Part shown: positions 5,377 through 63,054 of the stretch, piece after piece
Layout of the letters: the number at the start of each line of letters is the position of its first letter
Numbering within the stretch: the stretch's first letter is position 1
From: a virus
DNA length: 64,000 bases
Direction: 5' to 3' (one strand)
Virus record (IMG/VR): IMGVR_UViG_3300023198_001125
Program-made: the position numbers and the translations under genes
Notes under the pieces: generated by a model
Seen by the model: the letters and a program-made list of their open reading frames with translations, nothing else
Told to the model about the DNA's origin: nothing
The model's database searches: none

Positions 5377-5561
5377 CCCGTATTTACGCTAATTTCGGCG
5401 TTTTAAGGCGTTTTGCGGAGTATATCCACGTCCTAACCCCCGTAAGCCTAATCAGCATCGTATTTGGCCGTTTTCGCACTAATAATTGGCCAGAAACGAT
5501 GAAATTAGAGGGGATGTTGCTAACGCGTTCTTGGTTAGTATATACCACTAAGGAGGTAGTA

Positions 5562-5891
5562 ATGATCACCGTAGTAAATAGGCATTCCTATACAGGCAAG
5601 GGTGTCTATATCGGCCGTGGCACTGCATTAGGGAACAAGTTCTCACATGCAGGCTACAAGGGCACAATCAAGGTGCCAAGCCGACAACAATCTGTTGAGC
5701 GGTATGCTCGCTGGCTAAAAAAGCAGTTGAATATGCCACAATCACCAGCATGCGTGATGTTCTTGAAACTGGCTCAGCAAGCATGGGCAGGCAAGGACGT
5801 CACGTTGATTTGCTCATGCGCTCCGAAAGCATGCCATGGAGACGTGATCAAGCAGGCCATCGAAAACTTACTTGAGGAGGTCAAGTCATGA
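5562..5891 (+). CDS. DUF4326 family protein
   Basis: VVN...GVYIGRGT.LGNKF and LICSCAPKACHGDVI signature; AAGGAGG RBS before ATG 5562. Confidence 0.85.
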   Translation: MITVVNRHSYTGKGVYIGRGTALGNKFSHAGYKGTIKVPSRQQSVERYARWLKKQLNMPQSPACVMFLKLAQQAWAGKDVTLICSCAPKACHGDVIKQAIENLLEEVKS

Positions 5892-6769
5892 AGGTTTTCG
5901 CAGGTACAGGTCACCGCCCACCCAAAATTGGCGGGTACGATAAATTCCCTATCGTAGTAAATTTCGCTGTGATGGTATTGACCAAGTTGCAACCTGATGA
6001 GGTAATTTCGGGTATGGCACTTGGTTGGGATCAGGCGCTTGCACAGGCCGCCATCCAGTTGTCCATTCCATTTACCGCCGCATTGCCGTTCATTGGGCAA
6101 GGGCTACGATGGCCAGCAAGTTCGCAGGCACAGTATGAACGTATATTGAGCCATGCGAAGGACACCATCGTATGCTCAAAGGGTGGTTACTCGCCTGAAT
6201 TGATGCAAATCAGGAATGAGTGGATGGTTGACCATAGTTCGCATGTATTGGCCCTTTGGAATGGGTCGAGCGGCGGCACATTCAACTGCATTAAGTACGC
6301 TAATTCAGTTGACAAGATGGTCATGAACGTCTGGAAACCATGGGAGGAATGGTTTTCAGACGACGGTGAGTTGGAGCCCGGTAATATATTTTCGGGCAAT
6401 CCGGCATTAGCGGCACTCACCAATCCCACTGAATTAGCCCGTAAGAAAGGCAATCTGGATGTGCAGTATCCAGTGAAGTTTCGTGGGAAAGTATATCCTG
6501 ACGCAGAACAGGCGTATCAGGTCACTAAGCGCATGTCGGCTCAAATGGACTTTTTGGGCTTGCAGAATTTGTGCATTGACGTGATTACAGCCAAGTTACG
6601 TCAGTATCCCCAGTTGGTTGAACTAATCCGTGCTAATGGCGGCGTTGAGTGGCTACGGCAGTGTTCACATTTTGTGGGCGCACGCACTCAAGGGTTCAAG
6701 CAGTGGGAAGGTAAAGGTATGAAGAGTGCCTTTATCCGTGCTCTCATTGTAGCGTATGAGAGTTGCTAG
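5888..6769 (+). CDS. YspA/DUF1273-type SLOG domain fused to a NADAR-like domain
   Basis: FAGTGHRP...SGMALGWDQ...RNEWMVD...LALWNG..GGT (SLOG); YPDAEQAYQ.TK...AKLRQYPQL (NADAR-like). Confidence 0.8.
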   Translation: MKVFAGTGHRPPKIGGYDKFPIVVNFAVMVLTKLQPDEVISGMALGWDQALAQAAIQLSIPFTAALPFIGQGLRWPASSQAQYERILSHAKDTIVCSKGGYSPELMQIRNEWMVDHSSHVLALWNGSSGGTFNCIKYANSVDKMVMNVWKPWEEWFSDDGELEPGNIFSGNPALAALTNPTELARKKGNLDVQYPVKFRGKVYPDAEQAYQVTKRMSAQMDFLGLQNLCIDVITAKLRQYPQLVELIRANGGVEWLRQCSHFVGARTQGFKQWEGKGMKSAFIRALIVAYESC

Positions 6770-6884
6770 ACTTTTGGGCGGCGGCATAATTGCTGTCGCC
6801 CTTTAGTCATTTAAGCCAACATCGTTTGGTTATCAGCACTGGACGTCCCAGTGATGGAATTTTGCTAAGAGGAGGTATCGCCTT

Positions 6885-7250
6885 ATGATAGTTGAGCAAG
6901 CAGTACGCTTGTTCGGTAAGACGTTGAACGTGGACGTCACCAAGTACCACATCGGTCAAAATGCACTCGTATTGTGCTCCGTTGATGGCTACCCCGGTGA
7001 TTACGGTCACGCCAGCGTAGCAATTCCTAGCGCACCACAGCACCTAATGGCAACATATCTACGCCATTCGGGCTTTGATGTAGCCGAGAACGTCGTCTAT
7101 ATCAAGGGTTGGGAATTCCCTGACCAGCCTATACTCGAGCAATTAGTCGAGGCAGGCATCGTTCAGGACACCGGCTTAGCAGTCCCATGTGGACGCTGTA
7201 TGGCCGATGTAGCACTTATTAACGTCGCCTATCTACCCCGTGTTTCCTAG
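6885..7250 (+). CDS. hypothetical protein
   Basis: 121 aa, GGAGGT RBS. Confidence 0.7.
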   Translation: MIVEQAVRLFGKTLNVDVTKYHIGQNALVLCSVDGYPGDYGHASVAIPSAPQHLMATYLRHSGFDVAENVVYIKGWEFPDQPILEQLVEAGIVQDTGLAVPCGRCMADVALINVAYLPRVS

Positions 7251-7331
7251 AGGTAGATGATTTGCGGCGCATTTATTGAGTAGCCTGAGTTTTCGGCGTC
7301 GGAAACTTGGGCTACTACTCAGGAGAGTTCG

Positions 7332-7799: not shown

Positions 7800-7869
7800 T
7801 CAGATTGGGCGTAGTCTAAATGGCTACGCCCTTTCGGCGGTTAAATCCAATCTAATGACTTAGGAGGTC

Positions 7870-8073: not shown

Positions 8074-8162
8074 TAAATCAGGGCGTAGTCAGCAATGGCT
8101 ACGCCCTTTCAGTCGTTAATACTAAACCCGGCAACGGGAACTATCATGACCTAGGAGGTCAC

Positions 8163-8702
8163 ATGTCTCAGCAACGTTTATTCAGTTTGTATCGGCACGA
8201 CAACAACGAGTGCTTGATTGCTGATGTACCACAATCAGAGATCATCACCCGCCAAGCGTCCTATCACGCCCACGGTGGTAAATCAACGCTCGTCGTTGTA
8301 CCTGAAGGGCAGGAGTATCCCAAGCCTGCAACCGTAGCCGCAATCACCACCGAAGGCGAACCGCTGGAAGTGCAGGCAGTTCAGGGTGCATTGCCCGGCA
8401 TGGAGGAAGTCGCAATTGCACAGTCCGTAGCCATTGAGGCTTGCGAGTTCATCCTCCGTGAAGGCCCCAAGGTGGGCAAGAATTACTCATGGAGCGGCGT
8501 CATCAAGCGGGTCATGAACGGTAAAACCCCAACCGCTGATCCCGTTGACGAAAACGGTAAGCCAATCTTTGACAAGAATGGCCGCAAGAAGGTTGGCGAA
8601 CGCACCTACTTGTTCAACACCGTCAGCGAAATCGTTGCTGATGCCAAGCAGATGATTGCAAACCGTGAAGGCATTGCGATCATGAAAGAACTCTCCGAGT
8701 AA
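8163..8702 (+). CDS. hypothetical protein
   Basis: AGGAGGT RBS before ATG 8163. Confidence 0.75.
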   Translation: MSQQRLFSLYRHDNNECLIADVPQSEIITRQASYHAHGGKSTLVVVPEGQEYPKPATVAAITTEGEPLEVQAVQGALPGMEEVAIAQSVAIEACEFILREGPKVGKNYSWSGVIKRVMNGKTPTADPVDENGKPIFDKNGRKKVGERTYLFNTVSEIVADAKQMIANREGIAIMKELSE

Positions 8703-8774
8703 TCGAATTGGGCGTGGCCGTAATGGCTACGCCCTTTCTTGGGTTAATATCCAACTCATTGACTATAGGAGGTC

Positions 8775-9077
8775 ATGATGATTTATTACAACCCGAACGT
8801 AGAACTGTTCTGTGATGCGTGTGGCATCGAGATAGTGACTAGCAACTATTGCACCTATCCCAACTACGATGGTGTATTCCATCGTCAATGTGCCAACCCG
8901 GAGGCGGTCGATGGCCTACTAATTGGCTATAACAACGTTGTAGTAGGCGTTGATGAAACGGTGCTCGTGAAAGAGGCCGTTGAAACAGCCGATGCACGCC
9001 AGCACCCAAGTGATTGTGGTTGCAGTTGGTGTGTACCGTTAGCTTGGGGGAGCCTCACTCCAGCGGCGGAGTATTAA
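8775..9077 (+). CDS. hypothetical Zn-binding protein
   Basis: CDAC...HRQC, CGCSWC; AGGAGGT RBS. Confidence 0.7.
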   Translation: MMIYYNPNVELFCDACGIEIVTSNYCTYPNYDGVFHRQCANPEAVDGLLIGYNNVVVGVDETVLVKEAVETADARQHPSDCGCSWCVPLAWGSLTPAAEY

Positions 9078-9779: not shown

Positions 9780-9952
9780 ACGACATAATGCAAAATCCAT
9801 GGACAACAGTATGCTCATGCATAATCGTGTGGACTGTTATCGCAATGGCATTCATTGCGTATAAGTCAAGAAACAGTCACACGACAAACGAGGAAGATGA
9901 ACAATTCTACTTTCGGGTAAGCGACATAGGCTCAGGAGGCCACGATGAATAA
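9776..9952 (+). CDS. small single-TM protein
   Basis: 58 aa translated by hand, AGGAGG RBS, ATGA overlap. Confidence 0.55.
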   Translation: MNDIMQNPWTTVCSCIIVWTVIAMAFIAYKSRNSHTTNEEDEQFYFRVSDIGSGGHDE

Positions 9953-12287
9953 AGTTGATCGCAAGACCAAGGTGCACGTCATTACACCACAGGGCACACT
10001 AATTGAAGAGCGCACGCTCACCAATAGCCCATGGCCAGAACTTTACCCAGATCGTGACATGGTAATCATCGACTGGATGGCAAATACTCAGATACGACCT
10101 GATGAGGAGGCAATAGCAACACCTGTTGAATACGAGGGCAGGATATACTATGGTAATGCCTATTGGGGGAGCGCAGTAAAACAGGGTGTGACCATCGGCG
10201 TGACTGAACACTTCCTTGACGGCCGTATGGTCAAGAAGGCTGAGGATGGCCAGCGTGTAGGACGCTATCTGTTCGCTGAAGGTCATTGGGGTGCAATACA
10301 AGGCAAGTTACGTGTACGTGTATCACCAATCAACACCATGACACCATGGGGATTGATACATGATGGTGCTGGATTTGTACGCAAGGGATTGGCAGATCGA
10401 GCCTACTCAGGTCTGGATAAAATCAGGCTAGGACGAGCGAAAGAGAGTTATACGTTCTGGCAGAGAATTCCATGGACACTCGAGTTGGCACGAGAACTAG
10501 ACCCAATCCTGTCTGAGGCAGTAATGGCCGCTTCAGACATCTCCAAGTTGCTCTTGCAATACTCACCAGCCTCGTTTGATGAAAAACGAGCACTATACGA
10601 GGCAGACAACACAATGGACGAACACCCATACATTGTGAATGCAATTGCACGCAGTTCTGGTGAGTATCTCTCACGCATGGCTACCACAGCAAATGTGGGT
10701 ACTCGATGCGGCGTGATTGTACCAACACAGGCAGACATCGTAATTCCAAGTATGCCTGATGGCAATCCAGTCATTGGCTATCGACACCCCATCGATAGCA
10801 ATGGCTCAATCCAAGCGATGGTGAACAGCACGGACGAGGCAGAGTTCGTGTCTTATGGTCTATCTCAATTCACGCTAGCATCAGGGGAGATATTTGCTAA
10901 GGGTGTGTCCCGAGAGGTAGAAACAGATGACTTTGATGTCTGGCTATGCGATGAGGATATCAAGATGTCTGAATTGCCCCTAGAGGAAGTACGTCGTGAG
11001 GGCGAGTACGAAATAGACAGCATCTATGCTCAAACTCAGCGCCATAAAGAGAACACGGCCGTTGGTATGAACCTTGATAAAGCATCTGTAAGGCAAGGAG
11101 CAGATGGAGACGGCGACATTGAGGATATCGTTGACGGCAACAAGTACCCTGCATTGTACAGCGCAGTGTTACAACAGCCAGAGGGTACAACCAAGAAACT
11201 CGTGAAGTCAAATAGCCCGCTTGATGAACGTACATCAATGATATACAAGTCAATGATGAACTTGGTTGGATTTGCTACCAAGATCATGACTGACACGCTC
11301 ATGGTAACAGACCGTGAATACCTCGCAGACCAACTAGGCTACGAGAACGAGGCCGAAATGGACGCAGAGGGCAACTACCACATCAAGGTCGGCACTGATG
11401 GCTTCAAGACCAACATCGACCAAGCAGAGGTGCGAGCAAGGTTATCAACACTGCAATCCAACATGTTGGGATTGTTTGGCAAGGGTGCACCATACAGTGA
11501 TTGGCCTAACGACCAAGCATTCACACGCTCCATACCTCAGATTTGGCATGAGGGCATGGACGACGAGGATGCAATCGAGGCAATCATGCCATGGATGGAC
11601 AGCACAGTGCCCAGTATATCCCGGCGTGTACTTCCCGGATTGCAGAACGTGTTAGCGGAGCCGTTCAAGACACGCCCATTGACCACATACAAGTATTGGG
11701 CAGACCATTCCACGTACGATGCGCTTAGAATAGCGAGGAAGATGCAGGATTGGTACAACGCCAATGCCAGCGAGGTCAACTGGCAGGATGCAATCGCAAT
11801 CCAGCAATTCAAGTTGGAATGGAAAGAGCGTATTGCAGATGAGACACTACCACGATACGAACTGGCTAATGCACTATGGTTTATAGCGCATGGAGCACGT
11901 AGTGTCAACAGCGGCGCAGGCTCAGTGTTCCTTGGTTTCCCTGAAGAGGCACTCGACATCGTGCTTGAGAAACCCGGACAGCAGTACGTGAAGACCGAAC
12001 AGGGCTATGAAACGGTAATCGTAGGATTGCCAAAGCAATGCCCCAATGTCCTCGAGATGAAAGGCGAGGTAACGATCATTGACGTACCCCTGAAGAAAGC
12101 AGGCAAACTGATGGTGCGCAAAGCCATTGTTGCCGTCGTGGAAGGACAGTTACAGCCAAGTGACAACCGCTATCCAGAGAACACGATAGCATTAGTCGCT
12201 ACCAATGCCTTCCAGCCTCCAGCAGGTGTATACGAGGCATCAATCACACCAAACAGTGAGGCATCACACCTTATTGTATTGGCATAG
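9945..12287 (+). CDS. single-subunit two-barrel RNA polymerase, YonO/eukaryotic-RdRP-like
   Basis: 780 aa; catalytic GADGDGD (DxDGD), HDGAGFV (DGxG), YRHP, FAKG motifs. Confidence 0.75.
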   Translation: MNKVDRKTKVHVITPQGTLIEERTLTNSPWPELYPDRDMVIIDWMANTQIRPDEEAIATPVEYEGRIYYGNAYWGSAVKQGVTIGVTEHFLDGRMVKKAEDGQRVGRYLFAEGHWGAIQGKLRVRVSPINTMTPWGLIHDGAGFVRKGLADRAYSGLDKIRLGRAKESYTFWQRIPWTLELARELDPILSEAVMAASDISKLLLQYSPASFDEKRALYEADNTMDEHPYIVNAIARSSGEYLSRMATTANVGTRCGVIVPTQADIVIPSMPDGNPVIGYRHPIDSNGSIQAMVNSTDEAEFVSYGLSQFTLASGEIFAKGVSREVETDDFDVWLCDEDIKMSELPLEEVRREGEYEIDSIYAQTQRHKENTAVGMNLDKASVRQGADGDGDIEDIVDGNKYPALYSAVLQQPEGTTKKLVKSNSPLDERTSMIYKSMMNLVGFATKIMTDTLMVTDREYLADQLGYENEAEMDAEGNYHIKVGTDGFKTNIDQAEVRARLSTLQSNMLGLFGKGAPYSDWPNDQAFTRSIPQIWHEGMDDEDAIEAIMPWMDSTVPSISRRVLPGLQNVLAEPFKTRPLTTYKYWADHSTYDALRIARKMQDWYNANASEVNWQDAIAIQQFKLEWKERIADETLPRYELANALWFIAHGARSVNSGAGSVFLGFPEEALDIVLEKPGQQYVKTEQGYETVIVGLPKQCPNVLEMKGEVTIIDVPLKKAGKLMVRKAIVAVVEGQLQPSDNRYPENTIALVATNAFQPPAGVYEASITPNSEASHLIVLA

Positions 12288-13449: not shown

Positions 13450-13847
13450 TAGTCGTATACACAGATGGAGCATGCAGATTGTCGGGTGGAGGCCCCGGTG
13501 GTTGGGCTTTCCTAGCGGATGGAGAACTCGTATCAGGTGGACTGAGATGGACAACCAATAACGCCGCTGAATTATGGGCAATATGGTTTGCCATACTCCA
13601 TGTGGAGGCCAACACCAACGTGCTATTCGTAACAGATAGCAGAAACGTAATCGGGTGGTTGCAAAGAGACTGGAATAGAAGGCAACCACACATCAACGAG
13701 TTATGCCTGATGATTACAGATGCCAAACGTGAGAAGGGCATCAAATGGGCATTCAAGAAAGTGAAAGGACATGCACAAAATGAAAGCAATAACATTGTCG
13801 ATCACGCCGCAACAAATGAGGCACTCAAACTCCTCCGTCAACTATGA
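13446..13847 (+). CDS. rnhA: ribonuclease HI
   Basis: YTDGAC...GPGGW, TNNAAEL, VTDS, KVKGH..NE.N..VD..A. Confidence 0.92.
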   Translation: MIVVYTDGACRLSGGGPGGWAFLADGELVSGGLRWTTNNAAELWAIWFAILHVEANTNVLFVTDSRNVIGWLQRDWNRRQPHINELCLMITDAKREKGIKWAFKKVKGHAQNESNNIVDHAATNEALKLLRQL

Positions 13848-13864
13848 CGGAGGGGGTTTTTTTT
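13830..13864 (+). terminator. intrinsic terminator
   Basis: CTCCTCCGTC/GACGGAGGGG stem followed by T8. Confidence 0.85.
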
Positions 13865-13946
13865 GGCTAACGCGTTCTACAGTTTATTGCTATCGCAATC
13901 TCGAGCGATTTTAATCCACATTCTTTGTACATAGGAGGTACAAACT

Positions 13947-18178: not shown

Positions 18179-18604
18179 ATGGCACAATCAAATTCCGCAA
18201 ATGGTTATTTCCACATGGTATTAGTGGGTAACCTGGCAGCCGACCCTGAGCTTCGTTATACGCCCGGTGGCACGGCAGTATGCAACTTCCGCATCGCAGT
18301 AAATCAGCGGGTTCCCGCTGGTAACGATGAGTGGGAAGTAGTTCCACAATGGTTCAAGGTAGCATGCTGGGGTAAGCAGGGTGAAGCCTGCAACCAGTAT
18401 CTCAAGAAGGGTTCCCGTGTACTCGTCGATGTGTCCCGCATGAACTTCGATAAGCTGACCGGCGCCCCTGAGCTCTTCCAGCGCCAAGACGGCACCAACG
18501 GCGCTAACTATGAAGTAACCGCTCAAACGGTTCGCTTCCTGGATAGCCGCCCCGCTGATCAGCCTGGCGAGCCCATGGTTGAAGAAACAATCGACTTCAA
18601 CTAA
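18179..18604 (+). CDS. ssb: single-stranded DNA-binding protein
   Basis: LVGNLAADPELRYTPGGTAVCNFRIAVN; acidic ...IDFN tail. Confidence 0.95.
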   Translation: MAQSNSANGYFHMVLVGNLAADPELRYTPGGTAVCNFRIAVNQRVPAGNDEWEVVPQWFKVACWGKQGEACNQYLKKGSRVLVDVSRMNFDKLTGAPELFQRQDGTNGANYEVTAQTVRFLDSRPADQPGEPMVEETIDFN

Positions 18605-22180: not shown

Positions 22181-22960
22181 CTATTTCTCAACAGTTTGTT
22201 CTGATATATCCTGATGGAGGAGTTGCTCTTCTAATTGGTCATCACTCTCGTCAGTCTCGCTTTCTGTCATGGAAGACAAAGGCGTCGTTTCTGATGGAAA
22301 ATGTAACTCGTCGGACAGGGCTTGATCTATACCTAATTGATCTTCGAGCGAGCTACTGTCCGGATTGTCGAGTAAGGCAGGATTGGTGCTTATGTACTCT
22401 GCCTCTAATACCTCCTCTTCGACCTCGACGTACTCAGTCGGTAAAACAATCTTGACCTCAGTGAGGTCTATCTTGTTTTCAACAAGAAAGGAGACAAGTT
22501 CCTGTCTATCAGACTGAGCGGGCTGCATGTTCTCGAGCCCATTGAGTTGGATGACCTTCTCGATAGCACGTAGTTTAGTACCGGCGGCTATAGTGCCGGT
22601 CAAGAGACCTTTGAGCTTGCCAATGGCAAGTGGTAGCATGTCCGCTAACGCGCCCTGCGCTGCCTTGTATCTAGGATCATGCCCCAGCTCTGCAAAGAGC
22701 ATGTTGTAAGCAGTATCAAACTCTTCGGTTTTGGTGATGTCACGTAACTGGTGTGGGGAGATTTCCATTTCATCTGCGATCTCAGCCCATGTGCGTCCAT
22801 CATCAAGGTCAAGAAAGAGTGCAGCGGCTAGTTCTGCACGTTGTTGTCGTATAAAGTCTTCGCGCTCTGCTTTAGTGAGCTTTACACGACGTCCCTTTTT
22901 AGACTGGCGCTCTGCGAGAGCACCAGTAACTATTTCTGTATCAACTTTGAGCTTAGACAT
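22181..22960 (-). CDS. HTH-containing protein, possibly terminase small subunit-like or a regulator
   Basis: RTWAEIADEMEISPHQLR helix-turn-helix, acidic tail; lone minus-strand gene in a plus block. Confidence 0.6.
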   Translation of the reverse strand: MSKLKVDTEIVTGALAERQSKKGRRVKLTKAEREDFIRQQRAELAAALFLDLDDGRTWAEIADEMEISPHQLRDITKTEEFDTAYNMLFAELGHDPRYKAAQGALADMLPLAIGKLKGLLTGTIAAGTKLRAIEKVIQLNGLENMQPAQSDRQELVSFLVENKIDLTEVKIVLPTEYVEVEEEVLEAEYISTNPALLDNPDSSSLEDQLGIDQALSDELHFPSETTPLSSMTESETDESDDQLEEQLLHQDISEQTVEK

Positions 22961-22966
22961 ATGTCC

Positions 22967-22975
22967 ATTATAGCA
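22967..22975 (-). promoter_or_regulatory. extended -10 promoter, probably giving a leaderless transcript
   Basis: TG-C-TATAAT ending 6 nt before ATG 22960; no SD sequence. Confidence 0.55.
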
Positions 22976-23003
22976 CAAAGAATTATAAACTTGGAGGTTA
23001 GAG

Positions 23004-25871: not shown

Positions 25872-25984
25872 GGAAGGTGTTGTACTCCAGTGAATATGGA
25901 AATGGCACTCACTGGAGGTGAGTTCAATGATGGCTGACAAAAACCAAGTATATTATATCGGAGTTGGGGAACGGGAGGTGTATC

Positions 25985-26926
25985 GTGCACTCGTTTCAGG
26001 AGATCAGAGATTTTAGAAGAATATATACCATCAGGTCGGTGCTCAATTATCATGGGCGCAAGAACTGGATGGTGTGTCCGCTGCCTCAGCATTTGCACGG
26101 CAACAGTCCGACCCCATCGTTTTCTATCTACTATGACAAGGATGGCGTGGAGAGGTTTAAGTGTCACGGAGTTTGTGGTTTGAAGGGTGATGTGATTGAT
26201 TTGATTGGTTACTTGCAGGTCTCATCGTACGACCCTACCAGTATCAACTCCGTTCTCCGCGCCGTCTCTATTCTAGGTAATAAGTTTGAAATATCGACCG
26301 CCCCTAAAAAGGTGCGTCGTGACCTCCTTAGAGCCGATGCCTGGCGGGCCTATGTCCCGCCGGGTGTCGAAGCTCATAGGTTTGCCGAGAGTAGGGGGTT
26401 GACCCGTCCTACCGTAGAGAAGTTCAAGATCGGCCAGAAGAATAGTTATTTGTCCATGCCCGTGTTTGAGAACGAGAAGCTTGCTGGTATTAAGTTCAGG
26501 GCAATGTATCCTGGTGGTGCCAGTCTCAGGTTTTTTACAGAGAAAGGTAGTAGAGCAGGGCTGTTCAACTTTGATAGGGTACTATGGACTGAAAAACCAG
26601 TTCTTATTGTCAAGGGCGAGATACCTGTGATGCTGCTGGATCAATATGATATGCTGGCGTGTGCTCCTACCGGTGGCGAGGGAATGTTGGTGGACGAGTA
26701 CGCAAGAGCACTAGCGTTTTCAGCTAGAAGGGTCGTCGTAGGTGATAATGACCCTGACGCAGAGGTAAGGGAGAAGATGCAAGAGGCCGCCAGGGTGCGT
26801 GCTAACGCGCTCCATGCCGAGCTGAGATTTCCTCCCGAAAAGTATAAAGACATTGACGAGTGGATACTTGCCGATGAATATGCAATCGATGAGATAAAAA
26901 GATGGTTTGATGGTTGGTCATTCTAA
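25985..26926 (+). CDS. DNA primase (CHC2 Zn finger + TOPRIM)
   Basis: CPLPQH...FKCHGVC; IVKGE...VVGDND; GTG start after GGGAGG. Confidence 0.85.
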   Translation: MHSFQEIRDFRRIYTIRSVLNYHGRKNWMVCPLPQHLHGNSPTPSFSIYYDKDGVERFKCHGVCGLKGDVIDLIGYLQVSSYDPTSINSVLRAVSILGNKFEISTAPKKVRRDLLRADAWRAYVPPGVEAHRFAESRGLTRPTVEKFKIGQKNSYLSMPVFENEKLAGIKFRAMYPGGASLRFFTEKGSRAGLFNFDRVLWTEKPVLIVKGEIPVMLLDQYDMLACAPTGGEGMLVDEYARALAFSARRVVVGDNDPDAEVREKMQEAARVRANALHAELRFPPEKYKDIDEWILADEYAIDEIKRWFDGWSF

Positions 26927-28414
26927 TGAATAAAACACAAACTAAGAAGCTGAGGAAGGCCATGTTTCATGCGGGCACTCCCAGTACCGAGTTAGGCATC
27001 TTCAAGTCCAGTATTGGACTATGGTGGGTGGGCAGAGAGGACTGGGGGTTATACCAAACTGCCTGGCCTGATGGCTATTTTCTAACCGCCGACGAGGCAA
27101 TAGAGGCCGCTCTCAATGGACAGCGGCCCGAAAGGACAGAACCATGCATAACGTACAAGCCACGGAGTATGAGGTAAAGTTTCAAAAACGTGGATCAGAC
27201 AATCCAGTTCAGAGAGCGAGGTTCTTTGCGCCTGATGCAGAGAAGACCTTCGAGGCCTGGCTGGAGATGATAGTAGAGAGCGATGACCCCAAGAATTATA
27301 TCTATCTTGGTGAGCGCGAGTGCACCGGCGAACCCATCACCCTGGAGGTGAAGGATGTCATCGTCGAGCCAAGGGGGAAAATTGGCTAGAGATGTGGAAA
27401 TTCCTCAAACATGTGGTTGGATTGATGATACGCTAGGTGATATAGATGCGATGGGGAGCGCCGCCAGGAAAGGACATGTATCGGATGTGGAAGAGCATGC
27501 TGGAAATGCCTGCTGCAATCTTGAATATCTGCGTGAGATGAATGCCGAACTACGGGAGGTAGCCGAGGATTATGGCAGCGATGCAGATATGTTCGAGGGC
27601 CAGGTAAACAGACTTCAGGATGCTCTCCATAGAAAGGATCAAGAGATAGTGTCTCTCGAGGAGAAGATAAGGAGGCTAGAGAATGGCCAGAATTTTAGAC
27701 AACCCCAATGGCAATACTGATAGAGCTATTGTGGAGTACGCACCAGAGGAATTACTTCCCAAGGTTTTCGATGCCGAAAAGTCTACATTTGGGAATGCAA
27801 TCCAATCGATAGCGTGGAAAGACCTGTGGGCTAACGCGCCCCATATTGTCAAAGGAAAAGAATTCAAGTATAGTAATTGCACAGTTATAGATGGACTGTA
27901 TATTGTTACCTTCTATACTGAGCTACCAGAAATCAAGAGCCCGCAACCGGAGGCTAGATGAGCGACATAACTACGAAGACAATGAAGACACCACACGTCA
28001 AGTATATTTCGAAGGGCCCAGGTTTTATGGCGATGATGACTATTCAAGCTGGGAGCGTGTCAGATGCCAAGTTGTTTAGGATGCATGATGACCAGCATGG
28101 TTCTATCATTCAATTCGATAACTATCTGGACATGCTGAACGGATATAGGGTTCTAGGTGCTTTGATAGAGGAGATCAAGAACGATGATCCAGGTTATAGT
28201 GAACAGCCAGAACCTACTGGTGAAGGCAGTGGCGCCGAATAGAGAGGAGAGCGCCCAGACTATCATGAAGGAGATACATCCAGCTCACCGTAAATATATG
28301 GGCAAGGGTGTTTGGGCTGTCGGGAACCCATGGAGATATAGAAATATTCCTGCAATAAAAAGTGCATTGAGGGACGCTCAGAAGCAAATGTCGTTTCTTG
28401 ATGATGCAATATAA
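26926..28414 (+). CDS. run of six hypothetical genes (26926-27177, 27144-27389, 27355-27720, 27683-27961, 27958-28242, about 28184-28414)
   Basis: Overlapping plus-strand ORFs, most with an RBS; starts uncertain. Confidence 0.6.
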
Positions 28415-30531: not shown

Positions 30532-32711
30532 TGTATAAAGTTATTGTTGCTTACTCTAGCGGAGAGCTTCAGAAGAAGTTGAACCATGCGGCGGAAACGG
30601 GCTTCTATTTATCTGGACAGCACCAGGCAACGACTTTCAAAGAGGCAGGCTTCAAGGGTGAGCGGATCATGTACTCTGCCATAGCGATAAGTCAGGAAAA
30701 GTCCCTTGGTATTGTACAGGGATATGTTGGTGCCATAGAGGAGGCGGTTGATGCTAATTGAAAAATATGGAACGGATGCCAAGACCCTGGTGATAGCATT
30801 TGCTTTGTCTTTCACACAGGCTAATATTGACCTTGAAGATATCACCGATCATTTTGGTATTGATGACGAGCACGCTGAGCAGGCCCTTGCAGAGGCTCAG
30901 AGTATACTGAGTGTTCAGTTGGAGACCTTCCAAACGGCCATCGAAGTCCGTAACAGACTGGAGGCCATTGAAGAACAAATCAACCGGGCAAATAAAGCCC
31001 ACTTGAATTAGGAGATAGTATGGGTATTACGCAGAAGGAAAAAGATTATTGGTTAAGGGAACTCGATAGTGAGTTAGAGAAACAGCAAGAGGAGTACGCT
31101 GCCGAGGTCGAGCATGCCATGGCTATAGCTGAGGTATTGACAATTGAAGAGAGTGGCGTTGCTGGAGAGTTGGAGGCGATGGATAGGAAGCTGGCTGAGG
31201 TAAACGAGCTCTATCGTGTCTACGAAGAGGCCAACGATGAACTTCAAGATATGGTAGAGGACACTAACAAGAAACTGAAGCCATTCAGGTATAGCCAGGA
31301 GCGATATGGTCAACTAAACTGGTACTCGGCAAAAGTTGACTACAGTCCACCTAGTAGTGCTTACCAGAAGACGGGTGTTGGAGATATCAAAAACAGTTGG
31401 ATCGAAACGTTTGCCGAGATGAAACTGGACGAGGTTCTTGCAAGCGAAGGGCTTACTGGTACACTGACGATCGGGGCAAAGCGCAAGGGTCTCAAGCGCA
31501 ACGTTATGCTGGCCACCACCAGTGCACAACTCCGTACTTTCCTGGAGGCGTTCTGTTCTGAAAATGGATTGGAGCTTTAATGTCATTCAAAGGTATGTGG
31601 GGAGTACAAAATCATATGCCGTTTACCGGCGGAACGTACCTTACCCGCATGCTTAGAAAGACAGGTGATAAGGGCACTCGCTTTGGTAATATGCATGACC
31701 TGCCTGTAACCGAGTGGTCATATGACAGGGAGTTCATGACTATCAGACAAATACCTGAGTGGTATCGTTCTGCTCATGGGTATATGTCCCCTAATTGGAG
31801 GTGCGGTGGAACCGATAGCCAGATGTGGAATATTGTCAGCGCAAGGATGGTTCACTGTGCTGACAATAACTTCGACAACTGGATGATGAACATTCAGGAT
31901 AAGTACCCTGGTTTGTGTTCGTGGGTGTATAACATGTATGCTGTCCCTAGAATAGAGCTTATCCATTTAGATGATGTGGACAAGTGGTTGTTGGCCAACT
32001 TTAGTATCGAAAGTGATAATAAGGTCAAGCGTAATTCACACAAAGACCCCAAAGTGATAATAACTCCACAGGTGAGGGCGATGTGTGAACTTATGGAGAG
32101 CCCACTATGGTGGGAGCTAACGCGTTCGAGGCAGACATGATAAGTGTAGGAGACAAGGTGAAGGTGAAGAAAGGAAGGCTTACACCGATGACGAGGAAGT
32201 TTATCGGCATGGTGGGAGAGGTTACCGAGAAGAAGGATAAGATGGGTAGCGTTCTCTATAGAGTTACGTTTGTTAGCACCAACCTTGTCTCCTCCGCATG
32301 TTTCTTCGGGCCCGAACTGGAGCCTGATATGGTAGAATAGGAGGAAACATGATACGGTTCATTACCTCAGAGAAATTGAGGCTAATCACTTCCACACGCG
32401 GCCTGCATATCGGCCGCGTTTTGTACCGCCTACACCGTCACTACTGTAGAAAGATGGACACGCGGGGGAAGTGCGACCTGGTGTGTAATACAACCTGTAA
32501 GGTCAGCTTGACCCGTATCTTCCGTCCTTTTGAAAATCCCAAAGACCCATATGCTCTGGTTGTATGGCGGTGCCGTGAGGCATTGGCCGTGCAGGTAGAG
32601 GAGACATCACAGGCGGTACCCCAAGTAAATATCTTCAATGAACAAGTTATTGGTAATGCATTCGAATGGTTAGCAGAGGAGTATGATGAAAGCGAGGCCG
32701 AGGCGAATTGA
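30531..32711 (+). CDS. run of six hypothetical genes (30531-30761, 30751-31011, 31020-31580, 31580-32140, 32137-32340, 32349-32711)
   Basis: Translationally coupled ORFs with RBS; 32137-32340 looks KOW/SH3-like. Confidence 0.65.
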
Positions 32712-33186
32712 AAACAAAGTTGCAGAACTACTATCCGATTACCTTGTATCTATTGCGCCCGTCTCGAAGGTGGAGAGAATACCCGTATTGGGTCGAACTG
32801 GCCCCGATATCGATATCCTGCCCATCTTCCGAGTTGCGGTCGATGTCAAGTCAAGGAAAGCAAATCCAAAATCGTACCAAGCAAGACCAGGCCAGATAAT
32901 GAGGTGGAGGAGCGACCATCATGGGTATACTCATGTTGGTGCTACCTTACAAGACCTTGATGTGCTTTTCGACATCGAAAACCATCCGGTCATTGTTGAA
33001 AAAATGTCGAAGGTAGTAGATGATTGGCTCGAGCATATGGATAGATGGTGTGATGAGAACAAACCTGTTTTGCCTGCGCTGGTATTACATTGGCCAGGTA
33101 GACCAGTCAAAGACAGTGTATTTGTAATTTATGATGGCGACAGGAGGATTTTGCATGACAGAAGAAAATGCTTTGACGATTTATAG
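32683..33186 (+). CDS. PD-(D/E)xK nuclease, Holliday junction resolvase-like
   Basis: RRIENKVAELL...GPDID...VDVKS. Confidence 0.65.
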   Translation: MMKARPRRIENKVAELLSDYLVSIAPVSKVERIPVLGRTGPDIDILPIFRVAVDVKSRKANPKSYQARPGQIMRWRSDHHGYTHVGATLQDLDVLFDIENHPVIVEKMSKVVDDWLEHMDRWCDENKPVLPALVLHWPGRPVKDSVFVIYDGDRRILHDRRKCFDDL

Positions 33187-34054: not shown

Positions 34055-35390
34055 TGTGGGTTGGGAAAGAGCTGTTATAGCGACAGCAATATACGATCCA
34101 CAAACTATGGAGGAGGCTGGTGACTTGTTGCCAGCCGACTTCACCGATGAGCGTCAGGATATCTGGTCAGAGATAATGACGCTACATCGAAATGGTGCGC
34201 TTGATCAGAGAGCATTGATAGAGGCTCTCCGCGACAGAGGGGTGATGGGCACCGGTGCTTTGAGCGAGGAGTATCTCGCTGAACTGATGCAGTATCGTGG
34301 GACTGCGATGGAAGAGTACGCAAATAGGGTACTGAGTGCATCGAATAAGAGACAGATCATGCAAGTAGCGGGGATGATTATTGCAGATGCTCAGGATGAA
34401 AACGTAGATGATCAGGAGGCGTTTGATGCAGCGGAACGTAGACTTATGACGCTCCGCCGTAACAGATCGTCTGAATTAGGCACACCATTAGGAAGTATTA
34501 TTGGTGTCTTTCAGGATAGAATGCAAGGACTATTGGACGGTACGATTGTCCCCATGTGGATACCAGAGATTGAGCCTCTGAAAAGGGTTGTTCAATTCAT
34601 TGATGAGGAAGATTATATAGTTCTTGGTGGGAGACCAGGCGAGGGTAAGTCCTCGATTATGAGATACATGTTCATTGAGGGAGCGCTGGCGGGTACCCCG
34701 TCACTGCTGTTCAACCTGGAAAACGGAGAGCTTGAGTATGCTAAGTTTGCGCTTTCGTATAGGGCGCAAGTCGACAGCTCCAAGCTAAAAGACCCCAGAC
34801 TTTTGTCAGAAGAAGAACACGAGCGTGTTCGTTACGCTGCAAGGGAGCTCGCTAACGCGCCCTTGTATGTCAAGACACTGGGTGCCCCTTCGGTATATGA
34901 GGTGGAGCGTATATCTCGCCACCACATTACACGTTATGACGTCAAACGAATTGGCGTTGATTACATACAGCTAATAAGAAATGGCAAGGAGAATAAGGTA
35001 GCGGATGTGACAGAGAGCTCGCAGGTTTTGCGCTCTATTCCGATCAATTACAGAGTACCTCTTCTGGCCAATGCACAACTGTCAAGAAAAATTGAACACC
35101 GTGGGGAAGGGTCTATTCCAGTGCTCGCTGACTTGCGAGAGAGTGGCTCGCTGGAACAAGACGCTACCATGGTGTGGGTTCCTCGAGCAGTGTGGCCTAC
35201 ACCGACAGGCACGCAACTGCGGACGTTTCCAGATAATATAGACGAGAGTGGTGAGCTATATGAGGGAGCGAAAGCAATTCCAATCAAGGTTCATGTACTA
35301 AAGAACCGAAATGGTTCAGTAGGTGTGACACGTCCATTTCTATGGCGTAAGCACACGAACGATTTCAATACCATTATGATGGAGGTGTAG
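34047..35390 (+). CDS. dnaB: replicative DNA helicase, DnaB family
   Basis: GGRPGEGKS, FNLE, IGVDYIQL, AQLSR, DLRESGSLEQDA, KNRNG. Confidence 0.95.
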   Translation: MHNVGWERAVIATAIYDPQTMEEAGDLLPADFTDERQDIWSEIMTLHRNGALDQRALIEALRDRGVMGTGALSEEYLAELMQYRGTAMEEYANRVLSASNKRQIMQVAGMIIADAQDENVDDQEAFDAAERRLMTLRRNRSSELGTPLGSIIGVFQDRMQGLLDGTIVPMWIPEIEPLKRVVQFIDEEDYIVLGGRPGEGKSSIMRYMFIEGALAGTPSLLFNLENGELEYAKFALSYRAQVDSSKLKDPRLLSEEEHERVRYAARELANAPLYVKTLGAPSVYEVERISRHHITRYDVKRIGVDYIQLIRNGKENKVADVTESSQVLRSIPINYRVPLLANAQLSRKIEHRGEGSIPVLADLRESGSLEQDATMVWVPRAVWPTPTGTQLRTFPDNIDESGELYEGAKAIPIKVHVLKNRNGSVGVTRPFLWRKHTNDFNTIMMEV

Positions 35391-36480: not shown

Positions 36481-36871
36481 CAGACAAAAGGTTCAAGGTA
36501 ACAAGTGGCCTTGGTGAACCGGTGGAGTTTGGTGAACCCGACTTGGAAGACGATGCCTATCTCCATGTTGATGTTGCTGGCATGGGCTTGATCTTGATCA
36601 AGGCCGACATCGAGGGAATAGTCGTAGATGTCTATCCCGAAGATGAAGAGGAGCCTGTTGCTGGTTGTTGGGCTACCAAGGGAGAGCTGGAGGCACCAGA
36701 ATGATACGAGAGAGTGGGTGTTTTCTGCTTATAGTGTTACTGATATGGTTTCTTGCGGCGCTCTATGGAAGTTTTATATTCTTGACTAGTGTCGGCGGGA
36801 TGAACCCATACATGGCAGGTTTTATCATAGTCCTGCTAATTATAACGACGTGGTTACTAGGAGAAGCCTAA
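36477..36871 (+). CDS. two hypothetical genes (36477-36704 acidic; 36701-36871 membrane)
   Basis: ATGA overlaps and RBS. Confidence 0.6.
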
Positions 36872-44720: not shown

Positions 44721-47700
44721 CGTGTCCTTGTATTTGCATGTCGAATACGGCTTGTGTCTTGCTGACTTCCATAGCAATGGCTATGCGGTCAACAACAATG
44801 CTTACTGTCTCGTCTGGAAACTCTACCTCGATTATATCACCGGCTTCTACACGAGGGTCACAAGCTCCAGATAGGTTGTATGAGTTAGATTGTTTGTATA
44901 CTTCATCTAGTAGCCAATCGGCCTCTACTTGGGCATCCTGAGCAGTCATTACGTCCTCAGAGTTAGCTAAGAAGAATAGGTTTCCGTGTTCTGCTAACGC
45001 GTCCTCGTCGATGGACATAGCAGCATCGGCTCCCTCAACACGCACCCTGGTGGCCATATTAGTCTCGTTGTATTCACCACCGCCTGCGTTGGCTAGATCG
45101 TATGGGTCTCCAGAGTTTACAGTTACTTTCTCTCTATATAGGCGCAGATCGCCATTTTGATCGTCCTGCCAGTATATCCTTTTCTGGCCAATTAGGCGGT
45201 TCATAGAGCTGCTGCCCTTGATACCTATATCCATGATGAAGTTGTCCACTCTTTGGCCTAATTCAGGCCAATTGTAGCGAACTGTGGCACCTGAGTAAGC
45301 GGGTGCAGCCCAGGATTGCGTGTTTATCTCTTCGGGTAGCTTGAATGCGGCCACCAGTGCTCCTGCCAGGTATACATTCGCTCGTTGCTCTTGCACTGAG
45401 AAGGTCATCCACCCGTCGGTTGCATAGGTTGAGTTGTTTAGAGGCACAGACTGGAGGACTGTCTGACTATCAGCGGTCATAAGTACTGCATGTCCGTTCG
45501 ATCCGCCTTGTACATATACCACCCATCCTCCGCTACCAGATGATGTGCGACCAAATTGAATGCCGCCCTTTCCACTTGAGCCGAGCATAGCCATATGCAC
45601 TACGCAGTTGGCCTGTTTTATCTTGTAGCTCCCAAACTGACTGCCTAGGTTCCATGAACCACTTGAGGTGACAGTTCTGTCCATGTGCTTCTTGGCTTCT
45701 ATATTTTGTACGCCAGCTTTTCGGGCTATCTCAACAATCATCTCCTCCATAGACCATTCCTTCTCGTTGGTAAATACGTTGAACTCATCTATGTGAACAC
45801 GACCTGGTGTATATAGGTTTAGCTTCTCTGTAAGGTCGTTATGGGATGATATCAGCGTGCTGTTGTAGCCACGGGTGCATGTTCCCTTGTAGACTATTGC
45901 CCACTGAGTGCCTGGTCTGAAAGCGCCACGGGTATCCTCGGTGACAAATATACGGGAGAAGTTCTTTGTGTCCCATTCTCCATATGATACGTTTCCAACG
46001 AAGTCTAACCAGTCGGGATTAGTTGGAGAAAAGTACCCACCGGTAGGTTTCCATTGGCGTGGGGCATCATAGTCCCATCCGCCTGCTGCCACCTCATATG
46101 TGTTTCCTTTTGCGGGCCCATCAAGGACTACAACCATCATATCGTTGTAGTAGTTGGCACTTGTGTCACCAAGCCCTCCTACATATTCACCCCATATTGG
46201 GAATGAGTTGGCTGGAGGCGTAAAACCTGGGTTGTCTTTTGGTTGTCCGTCATTTGGCCATAGATGGCATTCTTGATTTATCCATGCTGAGCGGGCGGTT
46301 GATGCAGTTCCGCCTATTGCGGTTACGTAATACTGCTCCTCGTCCACTATATATACTTCGGGTACCGGGAGAGCATTACTATATTGGTCTACCTTCCATC
46401 CAAATGGAAGATATGTGGCGGTGTTGTTGTGGGGTCGGTTGTATGTCCATGAGATTTCGTTGTGTGTGAATAAGCCGAAGCGACCAACTGGCTGAGCACG
46501 GAAATAGGGTTTGTCCTCCTCTTCAAAGCTTTCAGTAAAAAGCTTTGTCCAGGAGGAAGCGCTGTCTGCCCTGTAGTAGACGTCTATGTGCCCCTCTTGG
46601 TATCTCACCATAAGCCAGTAGTCTGTAGCCGCTGATAGTGCCAATGACACGGTGTTGAGAACAGGCCAGGTTACCCAGTCTCCATCACGTACTGCTCTTA
46701 GTGATACACCAGGCGCACCAGAATGCTCTTTTGTACCCCAGGCAACCAACAGATAGTTCCTGCCATAATCTAGCCATGATAGCGTGTTTGGATCAGCAAC
46801 TCCAGCTCTTTCTGCTGCCTGCTCTTTAGTTTCAACATAGTAGTTTATAGCGATACCGGCTATAGGGTTATAGTTTGTATCACTATCGTACTTGAATTTC
46901 ATTTGAGCTATTCCACCTCTGGATGGGCGGGCTGTAGAATACATAAGGCCAAGTTTTTCTTGGGTAGCGAGGTTGGACACTGGGTTCATGTCAGTGCAGG
47001 TTAGTTTGTCGGCGACAACTTCCCAATGACCATCAACCCTGATTACCTCAGAGCGAAGAGCAGGTGATGCTATTTTAGTATCAGCACCCCAATAGTCATA
47101 TGACGTATCTGGCTTCCACATTTGCAGGTTCTTAGCTGAGCGAGAACGGCCAATAATAGTCTTGTATTCCCCACTCTCGCCTTGGTCATCGAGGACAACA
47201 TCTATGTTGAATGTCCCCATCTTGACTTCCTGTGGTGAGCCACCTTCTTGAGCTACACTTGCATACCATATGAGGTCGGAACCACTTCGAAGAGCTGAGC
47301 CAGACACACTGGGTGGTATGTCGGCGATAATCTTGGCACTGTCGTTTTGTGATGATGTAAAACGTACACTGTGTACGTCATCGATAGATAGGGATGGAGA
47401 TGTATCTCCAGTGAAGTCAACGCCATCTGCCTCATAGCCAAATCCGGGCCCAATGTAATACACCTTTGAGCCTATAAAGTGCATCTTTCCACCAGCTAGA
47501 ATGTTATCATCTGTTGTGCCATCAGTTCCCACAAAGATGTCACGTCCCATAGTCCATGGAGGCCCTTGTGAGTACATTTGCATGTGGCCGCCATCAGTTC
47601 TTATTAGGGCGCCGCCAACCCATAGGTCACCAGTAAGAGCCCATGGTTCATCACTGCCTATACTACCTGGACGGGTCACGCCACCCCATGCGAATTGGTT

Positions 47701-60803: not shown

Positions 60804-60814
60804 TATGCGCTCCT

Positions 60815-60844
60815 ATTGTAAAGTGTTCCTACCCTTATTGTCAA
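60815..60844 (-). promoter_or_regulatory. sigma70-type promoter of the scaffold-capsid-tail operon, with an inverted repeat over -35
   Basis: TTGACA-18 bp-TACAAT; TACCCTT-N6-AAGGGTA at 60830-60849. Confidence 0.65.
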
Positions 60845-60891
60845 GGGTAAATGTATGCCCACCCCGAGGGGTGGGCCTTTAGCTGGGCTAG

Positions 60892-61203
60892 TTAGGCAGT
60901 GATGCCAGCAGCGTCTAGCGCCGCTACAACCAATGCCATCTGGTCATTGAGCTCTTCGCAGAACTCAAGAAGCTCTGCTACCGTGGGTGCTGATCCATCA
61001 GCAATGGTAATTGCCTCATCAGTGGTGATCGTGGGATCATTCGCTGTGTAGGTAATCGCTACCTTGGCAACTGTTGCTTGTGCGTCAAACTGACCGGCGG
61101 CAATTTCAGGTGCGATATAATCGCGGAAATTAGCTCGGGCCCGTGCGCCGCGGATGTACTCGCTGACTTCGGCGATCTTAGCCGATGTAAAATACTTAGC
61201 CAT
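60892..61203 (-). CDS. putative head decoration/fibre protein
   Basis: Ala/Thr-rich, ends ...LVVAALDAAGITA. Confidence 0.55.
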   Translation of the reverse strand: MAKYFTSAKIAEVSEYIRGARARANFRDYIAPEIAAGQFDAQATVAKVAITYTANDPTITTDEAITIADGSAPTVAELLEFCEELNDQMALVVAALDAAGITA

Positions 61204-61237
61204 TTCTGTCTCCTTTCGTAGTTTTCGATGTCGAAAA

Positions 61238-61543
61238 TTACAGGTTATCTAGTACGGCGAAAGTTAATACGCTGGTCTTCCAGGCTCCACCTGGCAAGGT
61301 CACCTGGCCTTGCCATTGCCAGTTGCCAATCTCTGCAAGGACATTGGCGGCGGTAGTAGCGTACTCCATTTTTCCATCAGTTCCATCAGTTGTGTGAGTA
61401 GCTGTGTGGGTAGTTTTTACGGTTGTGGGACTAACCAGATTGATCTTCATTACCGACGCAGCAGAGATGTCGACAATGGATGTTCCATCCATAATCGTGA
61501 GAATAAATGTAGTTCCAACATCTCCCTCGTGGATATCGCTCAT
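61238..61543 (-). CDS. BppU-N-like small virion protein
   Basis: IHEGDVGTTFILTI...DGTDGKMEY...GNWQWQGQV. Confidence 0.6.
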   Translation of the reverse strand: MSDIHEGDVGTTFILTIMDGTSIVDISAASVMKINLVSPTTVKTTHTATHTTDGTDGKMEYATTAANVLAEIGNWQWQGQVTLPGGAWKTSVLTFAVLDNL

Positions 61544-63054
61544 ATTTCACCATCCTGTTCGTATGTTACTGCAACGGGTGCATCTTGGCCGTGCTCTTGT
61601 TCGATCTCCCCGTCACCGTCTAGTTGCTGGTCGATATAAGCGTCTATGTCGTACTCTTGATCAATCAAAGCATACTCCTCATGGACTAACAGTACATATC
61701 CTACCACAGAGTATGTTATTGTCGCAAGCCCGATGTCTTCATGGCGCTCATACCACCATTCTCCTAAGTATATTAATTGAAGGCCATTTGCTTGTGATAG
61801 CCCAAGACCAGCTAGGTTATGTACCTGCGTAAGTGTAGGTACAGAGAAGGTGTTGGCCTGTGTGATGTTTATTGTGGACAGTTGGTAAGCTGTGTTTACC
61901 CATGGTTTCTCAACTAGGTTAGACTGGGTGAGATTATTTACAGCTATTACATGGGTCTGAGTTAGTGATGGGACAGAGACGATGTTGGCTTGTGCTAACG
62001 CGTACCCAATGACAGAGCCTTCGGGCTCGATGGAAGCCTTCTCTACTTGGTTTGACTGCGATAGATCATTTACTATAAGGTCACTGGTTAGAGTGAGGCT
62101 CTTCTTCTCTACAGTGCTCTCTTGTGAGAGGTCCTTGAGGGAAAGATTGTGGGCTTGTGTAAGTGTAATGGCGGTGAAGTCACTAACCTGTGACAAATTG
62201 TCAATGGCCAGCGTACTCTCTTTCGTTATGCCAACCTTGTCTACAGCATTGGACTGGGAGAGATCGTCAACAACAAGCGTGCTTTCTGTGGCGCCAACAG
62301 GGAAGTTGAAGAACCGCTGTGGGTAGTCTATCCAGGCAGGTTGTTTTGTTTCTGGAGGTGCGTATTGGCTATTGTATGCGTATGTTACTGTTGTTGCTTC
62401 TTTGCCGTCGACGACGTTGGCTTTCTTGCGATCAGTTAGTGGCGCATAAAATACAAGCCCATTCGGAAACCATAGAGGGGAGTGGCCCTTGGCTAGCCAG
62501 GCAATTTCGCTTGGCAAGAGCATCCTTCTCCATATACCGTAGTGGGCTATGGCGCCATCAAATTCTGCACCACCTGAGTTTCTAGTCCCTATTCGGAATT
62601 CGTCTGGATGTGTTTCTGTTGATGAACCACCAGAGCTGGAGCTACGACCGACTGCGATGCCGTCCTTGTAAGGTTCTATGTTGTCTGCTTGGTATATACC
62701 GCCACCAATTCCACCTAGGTCTGTATATGCATAGTGATGCCACTCATCCCAATCGATGGTTGCATTAAAGGCTGCGTATCGGCTATTTGGTCTGAAGGCC
62801 AGTATGCGTGACCCGCTATCGATGCTATAGAGCCTCCAGCCCCATGTGTTTGTGGCACCGCTTGTGCTGTAAGCGGTGCCAATATATGGGTTGCCCGTGA
62901 TATCACCAGTTGGTCTTAGCCAGGCAGACATGGTGTATGGATGTTCCCATGCATCCATGGGAACATACTTGTCATAAAAGACTGTCTGGCCAGTTGTCTG
63001 GTCGAAACGGGTAGAGCCCCTCAAACGCAAGACTTCGGGCTTCGCAATTATCAT
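61540..63054 (-). CDS. LamG/concanavalin-like virion protein with repetitive stalk
   Basis: YTMSAW...WHHYAYT...FDGAIAHYGIWRRML; repeated L.V..LSQ motifs. Confidence 0.7.
   Translation of the reverse strand: MIIAKPEVLRLRGSTRFDQTTGQTVFYDKYVPMDAWEHPYTMSAWLRPTGDITGNPYIGTAYSTSGATNTWGWRLYSIDSGSRILAFRPNSRYAAFNATIDWDEWHHYAYTDLGGIGGGIYQADNIEPYKDGIAVGRSSSSGGSSTETHPDEFRIGTRNSGGAEFDGAIAHYGIWRRMLLPSEIAWLAKGHSPLWFPNGLVFYAPLTDRKKANVVDGKEATTVTYAYNSQYAPPETKQPAWIDYPQRFFNFPVGATESTLVVDDLSQSNAVDKVGITKESTLAIDNLSQVSDFTAITLTQAHNLSLKDLSQESTVEKKSLTLTSDLIVNDLSQSNQVEKASIEPEGSVIGYALAQANIVSVPSLTQTHVIAVNNLTQSNLVEKPWVNTAYQLSTINITQANTFSVPTLTQVHNLAGLGLSQANGLQLIYLGEWWYERHEDIGLATITYSVVGYVLLVHEEYALIDQEYDIDAYIDQQLDGDGEIEQEHGQDAPVAVTYEQDGEI

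Follow-up and report, generated by a model that had tools for sequence, protein, structure and literature searches.

A one-strand word in a two-armed phage genome

We analyzed a 64,000-nucleotide stretch of viral DNA (IMG/VR record IMGVR_UViG_3300023198_001125; the whole 64-kb stretch is referred to below as the window) in which a 12-nucleotide word, GCTAACGCGYYC, recurs about every 7 kb on one strand only. The phage is uncultured and siphovirus-like by gene content; no nucleotide-level match of the window was found in the phage collection, where the capsid has only remote protein matches. Its genes are arranged in two arms that converge at ~40.4 kb: a rightward early/replication arm (1-40.4 kb, + strand) encoding a putative YonO-like RNA polymerase of 780 amino acids (aa), RNase H, SSB, primase, DnaB, a Cas4-like exonuclease, a Sak4/AAA_24 ATPase and a lead for an Hjc-like resolvase, and a leftward late arm (40.4-64 kb, - strand) with lysis genes, tail genes, a 2319-aa tape measure, tail tube and capsid.

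Exact counting on both strands gave nine matches to the 9-mer core of the word, GCTAACGCG, on the + strand and none on the - strand, in agreement with the nine positions and the zero reported in an earlier reading of the letters alone (hereafter the sequence-only reading). GCTAACGCG is the most frequent 9-mer of the window, and few copies are expected under any of the null models: dinucleotide-preserving shuffles gave a mean of 0.22 over both strands combined (maximum 2) and Markov models of orders 1, 3 and 4 gave 0.06-0.11 copies per strand, with a Bonferroni-corrected P over all 9-mers of ~1e-9 to 1e-11 for these orders. The earlier estimate of 0.24 copies per strand is correct if all bases are equally frequent; nulls that take composition into account give about half of it. 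When synonymous codons were shuffled within every predicted gene, ~0.3 coding copies were expected on the + strand vs 7 observed, and ~0.17 copies in all on the - strand vs 0 observed. The enrichment, which is ~80-fold or more, survives both the Markov and the codon null that had been set beforehand as a check, and ~330 kb of unrelated viral loci, examined as a negative control, contained a single copy of the word. Taken together, the dinucleotide shuffles, the Markov models (orders 1-4) and the synonymous-codon shuffle rule out chance or a by-product of coding.

Two of the nine copies are intergenic, four lie in + strand genes and three in - strand genes. Specifically, the first copy (5519..5530, GCTAACGCGTTC) is found 43 nt upstream of the ATG of a DUF4326 gene (5562-5891), with a SLOG gene coming next, and the second (13866..13877, also GCTAACGCGTTC) directly 3' of an intrinsic terminator (13830-13865) and 81 nt before an ATG at 13947; a promoter scan detected no sigma-70-type promoter at either intergenic copy, and we dropped such a promoter as an explanation for them. 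The + strand genes that contain the word are the primase gene (25964-26926; copy at 26801..26812, GCTAACGCGCTC, frame Ala-Asn-Ala-Leu), an open reading frame (ORF) at 27683-27961 (27830..27841, GCTAACGCGCCC, Ala-Asn-Ala-Pro), two overlapping ORFs, with the copy at the end of 31580-32140 and the start of 32107-32340 (32116..32127, GCTAACGCGTTC), and the DnaB helicase gene (34047-35390), where it occupies codons 269-272 (34851..34862, GCTAACGCGCCC, Ala-Asn-Ala-Pro). The three copies that the sequence-only reading had assigned to minus-strand genes do lie in such genes: one within a gene whose product is helix-turn-helix (HTH)-like (22181-22978; 22644..22655, GCTAACGCGCCC), one on the non-coding strand of a tail gene (44707-48414; 44993..45004, GCTAACGCGTCC), both in the Ala-Leu-Ala frame, and one within a tail-fibre-like repeat gene (61540-63054; 61994..62005, GCTAACGCGTAC), read Tyr-Ala-Leu-Ala. 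Judged from the coordinates, copies in + strand genes read Ala-Asn-Ala and those in - strand genes Ala-Leu-Ala, and the third frame in each orientation has a stop codon; the word thus sits where its cost to the protein is least, in either gene orientation. Copies are denser in the early/replication arm (7 in 40 kb vs 2 in 24 kb of the late arm), and on the antisense strand of the late arm their density is still ~50-fold above chance.

Conservation in diverged relatives and the form of the word

The word is also present in relatives of the phage. One of these, IMGVR_UViG_3300027987_000364 (G001), shares the polymerase gene with the window (54% amino-acid identity) and elsewhere resembles it little at the nucleotide level; the 26 kb of G001 that we counted contain three forward copies and no reverse copy, in a - strand Metallophos gene, in a - strand holin gene, and in intergenic DNA upstream of the G001 SLOG homologue, the place equivalent to position 5519 of the window. 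The late arm of G001 continues past the right end of the window with portal, DNA methylase, probable large terminase and holin genes, and the two arms diverge from a point ~0.5 kb to the left of window position 1; from this layout we estimate that the whole genome is ~75-80 kb, of which the window would represent about 85%. A closer relative (L001; capsid 92% identical in amino acids and 77% in nucleotides) has one copy, on the same strand as in the window, in the homologous tail-fibre-like gene and five codons off the window copy at 61994 within the repeat unit. In a third relative (L021), whose DnaB is 78% identical in amino acids, the same codons as in the window read GCT AAC GCG CCC, so that all 12 nt are identical, and 7/10 conserved residues flanking them are encoded by different synonymous codons from those of the window. 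The more distant DnaB of L022 (54% identity) has GCC GCC GCG CCC at this place and is without the word, which was either lost or never present.

The four phages together provide 14 copies (window 9, G001 3, L001 1, L021 1), and all 14 have one orientation (two-sided P = 1.2e-4). Eleven of the 14 are inside coding sequence, six are antisense to their gene, and the orientation is constant across both the convergence point of the window (~40.4 kb) and the divergence point of G001 (~14.6 kb). Because copies in intergenic DNA, in + strand genes and in - strand genes of both arms share this one orientation, the polarity follows the genome rather than transcription, as the sequence-only reading had maintained.

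From the 14 copies we derived the consensus BBBB-GCTAACGCG-YYC. All nine window copies extend the 9-mer as Y-N-C, with a pyrimidine at position 10 and C at position 12, just as first described; over the copies of all four phages, C at position 12 is invariant (14/14), positions 10-11 are pyrimidine in 26/28 cases, and the rule for position 10 has one exception, GCTAACGCGATC in G001. A is found at only 3/56 of the positions formed by the four bases upstream of the word (P = 1e-4), and the constraint on this flank and on position 12 is seen in all coding frames and orientations. The footprint of the word is therefore 12-16 nt, made up of 12 specified positions and a four-base A-depleted flank. 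Variants with one mismatch show no excess in the window (2 on the + strand and 3 on the - strand vs 2.8 and 2.9 expected), so that recognition of the word is all-or-none in sequence, and such sharp recognition over ~12-16 nt points to a sequence-specific protein as its reader.

Two further origins of the conservation were considered and rejected. A protein motif is ruled out by the range of contexts (intergenic DNA, Ala-Asn-Ala in + strand genes, Ala-Leu-Ala in - strand genes) in all of which position 12 is kept, and a hairpin or other structured element by folding energies of the flanks that resemble those of random windows and reveal no common structure. The retention of position 12 and of the flank in every context, the lack of a common fold and the synonymous-site conservation in DnaB together argue for a constraint on the DNA itself rather than on protein or on RNA structure. 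The data show a word that is under selection as DNA, occupies a single strand whatever the direction of the gene, and is common to relatives. We note that GCTAACGCG is identical to part of a conserved stretch of bacterial 16S rRNA (...GGAGCTAACGCGTTAA...), which accounts for the literature matches to the 9-mer that we checked; the 12-mer does not match this stretch, in which position 12 is A, and the identity of the 9-mer is probably a coincidence.

A candidate array of programmed nick sites and competing readings

The pattern is reminiscent of the motif-defined arrays of single-strand interruptions in certain phage DNAs. The 14 copies of TACTRTGMC in phage tf are nicked without exception and lie on the top strand only, in a genome with two convergent transcription units; there are only three near-cognate sites, and relatives share sites at similar positions (PMC3517423). 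In Rembedalsseter, native nanopore reads revealed 13 strand breaks linked to WACTRTGAC, and in 60 relatives with little nucleotide similarity this motif shows a one-strand excess (net 9.0 per genome vs 0.7 outside the cluster), with 88% of the 542 copies in coding sequence, on coding and non-coding strands both (PMC11780129). Neither of these papers names a nickase for its phage (PMC3517423, PMC11780129), and the function of the localized nicks of phiKMV-like phages and of T5/BF23 is still unknown (PMC3517423).

We compared the word with the motifs of the tf/Rembedalsseter/LUZ24-like phages (TACT/RTGMC, WACTRTGAC), the phiKMV-like phages (CGACxxxxxCCTA/CTCCGG) and T5/BF23 (R/GCGCRGG). Like the first group, the window phage has a 9-mer core on one strand only, ~9-14 copies per genome and two convergent arms, and its copies are mostly in coding sequence of either strand, have few near-cognate sites and are kept in divergent relatives with some positions conserved. 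The placement is on one strand whatever the direction of the gene (9:0 in the window, 14:0 with relatives), and the enriched word is shared by the diverged relatives G001, L001 and L021, down to synonymous sites of DnaB. Unlike in tf/Rembedalsseter, a 45-kb podovirus type, the word here belongs to an unrelated, uncultured siphovirus-like phage of ~77 kb, has another sequence and a longer footprint (12-16 nt), and occurs at a density of 1 per 7 kb vs 1 per 3.3 kb. The phiKMV-like and T5/BF23 sites are likewise tied to a consensus and confined to one strand, and the phiKMV consensus is likewise long (14 specified bases); both are unrelated to the word in sequence. There are only about four phiKMV sites, every one of them in the non-coding strand; the T5 consensus is short and can be found on the un-nicked strand too.

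Because the word matches every sequence-level property of the tf/Rembedalsseter arrays, we rank a site-specific nick on the + strand as its most likely mechanism, with a probability of roughly 0.4. Programmed nick sites, the closest described match, were not among the ideas put forward in the sequence-only reading. We propose that GCTAACGCGYYC, preceded by four non-A bases, may be the site of a strictly sequence- and strand-specific DNA enzyme of the phage lineage, most likely a nicking activity that would introduce a + strand cut at every site, either during packaging or late in infection; both the cutting of the + strand and the phage origin of the enzyme are what we infer. Virion DNA would then hold about 10-11 fixed single-strand interruptions, as in tf/Rembedalsseter, phiKMV and T5.

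Several observations weigh against a nick site. Pfam, PHROGs, NCBIfam and simple patterns yielded no HNH, GIY-YIG or HUH nickase candidate from the proteins of the window, which covers ~85% of the genome and in which many ORFs are unannotated; the only nucleases seen are the Cas4-like exonuclease and the Hjc-like resolvase lead. None of the contigs of the relatives ends at the word, an observation that is uninformative for short-read assemblies, and in the relatives whose capsid is 57-69% identical the word is absent from the structural region, of which 14-28 kb was available per relative. Whereas the tf/Rembedalsseter nicks were shown physically, the array described here is known from sequence alone, and other directional processes would leave the same signature. 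A plain double-strand DNA-binding site would be randomly oriented, and the uniform orientation across both arms needs a strand-specific or genome-wide one-way process.

Among the alternatives, we consider it unlikely that the word serves neither as a nick site nor as a Chi site and instead represents an undescribed genome-polar signal of a phage lineage probably infecting Chloroflexota. An example would be a signal that enforces one-way (rolling-circle) replication, as a polar fork barrier or a strand-specific initiation site, and is read by one of the many unannotated proteins of the replication arm. A replication-direction signal, either a priming (single-strand initiation) site on the strand displaced in rolling-circle replication or a polar fork barrier passable from one side only, seems rather unlikely. 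It would fit the genome-wide polarity, which does not flip at the convergence of the arms, the phage's own primase, DnaB and SSB, and the higher density of the word in the early/replication arm. However, known DnaG-type primases recognize only 3-5 nt, the copies are 1-17 kb apart, which for Okazaki priming is a long and uneven spacing, they lack the hairpin context of known single-strand initiation (ssi) signals, and no Tus- or RTP-like protein was seen.

An improbable reading, in our estimate, is that the word is a Chi-like signal that attenuates a host or phage RecBCD/AddAB-type helicase-nuclease entering at one free end of rolling-circle or packaging intermediates. Like Chi sites and phage Chi clusters, the word is over-represented, strictly polar and independent of genes, a single free entry end would explain its single orientation genome-wide, and its density of ~1 per 7 kb is comparable to that of Chi in E. 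coli. Known Chi sites, however, are host-genome words of only 5-8 nt that are skewed to the leading strand, whereas the word here has a footprint of 12-16 nt; its copies are dispersed and not clustered near an end, and the phage has its own recombination module.

Candidate hosts were examined for the word. Relatives of the capsid module are present in contigs of metagenome-assembled genomes (MAGs) from Chloroflexia (L039 and L041, 198 and 286 kb), Anaerolineaceae (L040) and Lentisphaerota (L038), and these modules are syntenic with 48-60.7 kb of the window (scaffold, capsid, tail tube, tape measure). The long contigs with syntenic modules suggest prophage relatives, and Chloroflexota is a plausible host phylum of the capsid lineage. 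In the four MAGs the 9-mer occurs 11-30 times per 2.6-6 Mb, below a control word, and in none of 301 sampled Chloroflexota genomes does the 12-mer exceed 5 copies (the sample includes G154, G236 and G281, each with 0-1 copies, and the conclusion is independent of these three). No candidate host genome that we searched treats the word as a Chi-like signal or as an architecture-imparting sequence (AIMS). Thus, while the genome-polar DNA signal of the sequence-only reading, independent of transcription and read by a process that is directional or strand-specific, is well supported by the uniform orientation, by copies in genes of both orientations and in intergenic DNA, and by the synonymous sites, its specific proposal of a host Chi-like site finds no support in the footprint, in the host genomes or in the gene content of the phage.

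A guide for a DNA translocase, similar to the FtsK-orienting polar sequences (KOPS) and read by the packaging motor or during ejection, appears quite improbable. The polarity is uniform over the whole genome, and the most evident one-way processes that a phage genome undergoes are packaging and ejection. Against this, we know of no precedent for a terminase or an ejection process that reads dispersed words, the density of the word is far below that of KOPS in bacterial chromosomes, no FtsK/HerA-type protein was found in the window, and the switch of orientation between replichores that marks KOPS and AIMS is seen neither at ~40.4 kb in the window nor at ~14.6 kb in G001. We give even less credence to a promoter or a pause/termination signal of the putative YonO-like single-subunit RNA polymerase (9945-12287, rightward arm) for rightward transcripts including late-gene antisense RNAs: 3/14 copies are intergenic and promoter-like, with a start codon 43-81 nt downstream (window 5519 and 13866; G001 19748), and the motif-bearing G001 shares the polymerase gene, but the copies inside coding sequence, with almost half of all copies antisense, do not resemble a T7-type promoter array, most intergenic regions of the early arm are without the word, and its excess persists on the antisense strand of the late arm. 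Processes other than those named here take the remaining probability. Evasion of Type III restriction, as in T7, whose EcoP15I sites are alike in the single orientation of an asymmetric word, was rejected, as it explains orientation only and not the 50- to 100-fold over-representation or the conservation of the 12-mer at synonymous sites.

The feature is real and strongly selected, and it adds to a known class of one-strand phage words whose function is still unexplained. Phage DNA with programmed single-strand nicks was recognized ~50 years ago, the nicks have yet to be given an accepted function, and motif-defined nick arrays have so far been described in few groups only (T5-like, phiKMV-like and tf/LUZ24-like). 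If the word is a nick site, such a cleanly defined 12-nt word on one strand, in a siphovirus-like lineage that is uncultured and unrelated to these groups, would widen the range of the phenomenon; if it is not, the word marks another, still unknown directional DNA transaction. The copies in both arms and their retention at synonymous sites provide sequence-level evidence of strong selection on such words.

Other words and genes of the lineage

A distant relative, G310 (IMGVR_UViG_3300014839_001411, loci L044-L047; 69.7 kb, classed as a provirus, DnaB 36% identical), has a one-strand word of its own, TCTCCAGGCA (7:0), with the 9-mer CTCCAGGCA at 8:0, about every 8 kb and in open frames of both orientations. 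The copies are at 10982, 20786, 31589, 33673, 41500, 48635 and 68142, with the 9-mer only at 63052, with a corrected (Bonferroni) P between ~5e-6 and 1e-2 according to the Markov order. If this word is real, each lineage would have its own, which is what a reader co-evolving with the phage leads one to expect. Nothing convincing in the way of another polar word was found in G002, G004, G005, G311, G312 or G313, and queries of IMG/VR with the tail protein, the primase and DUF7873 returned no further close relatives, the SLOG query giving unrelated phages only.

The window itself contains a second strand-biased word, GTATATCC, in + strand and - strand genes, with ten copies on the + strand (5420, 6491, 7496, 11614, 24423, 33477, 43906, 43959, 45172 and 50322) and one on the - strand (10148); AGTATATCC is found at 7:1 vs 0.44 expected over both strands. 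This second word is not shared by G001 (0:2), and G002 has 3:0. A palindrome, TTCGRYRYCGAA, has 16 sites in the window, from 3197 to 63913 (e.g. 12290, 27767, 44095 and 61224), and shows no spatial association with the polar word, so that we rejected a link between the two. Variant palindromes occur in relatives: TTCGACGTCGAA in G005 (8:8, extended by GAT mainly on one of the strands) and GCGTCGACGC in G002.

The phage carries its own recombination set, comprising SSB (18179-18604, + strand), a candidate PDDEXK_15/Hjc-like resolvase (32683-33186, +; an ESM Atlas lead with a score of 0.93), the Cas4-like exonuclease (35677-36480, +) and the Sak4/AAA_24 ATPase (36850-37857, +); no DNA polymerase gene was recognized in the window. 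The gene at 22181-22978, which holds the polar-word copy at 22644, is the sole leftward gene of the early arm. Its 265-aa product, possibly a DNA-binding regulator, has an acidic tail and a weak helix-turn-helix/small-terminase-like match (PHROG E = 2e-4; Pfam HTH_23 E = 0.01). In the stretch of G001 that corresponds to the part of the genome beyond the window (locus L029), the - strand between the portal and terminase genes encodes a Metallophos phosphoesterase (4841-6160), an N6/N4 DNA methylase (8143-8922), a sulfotransferase-like protein (9811-10461) and a DUF4406 protein (11060-11428).

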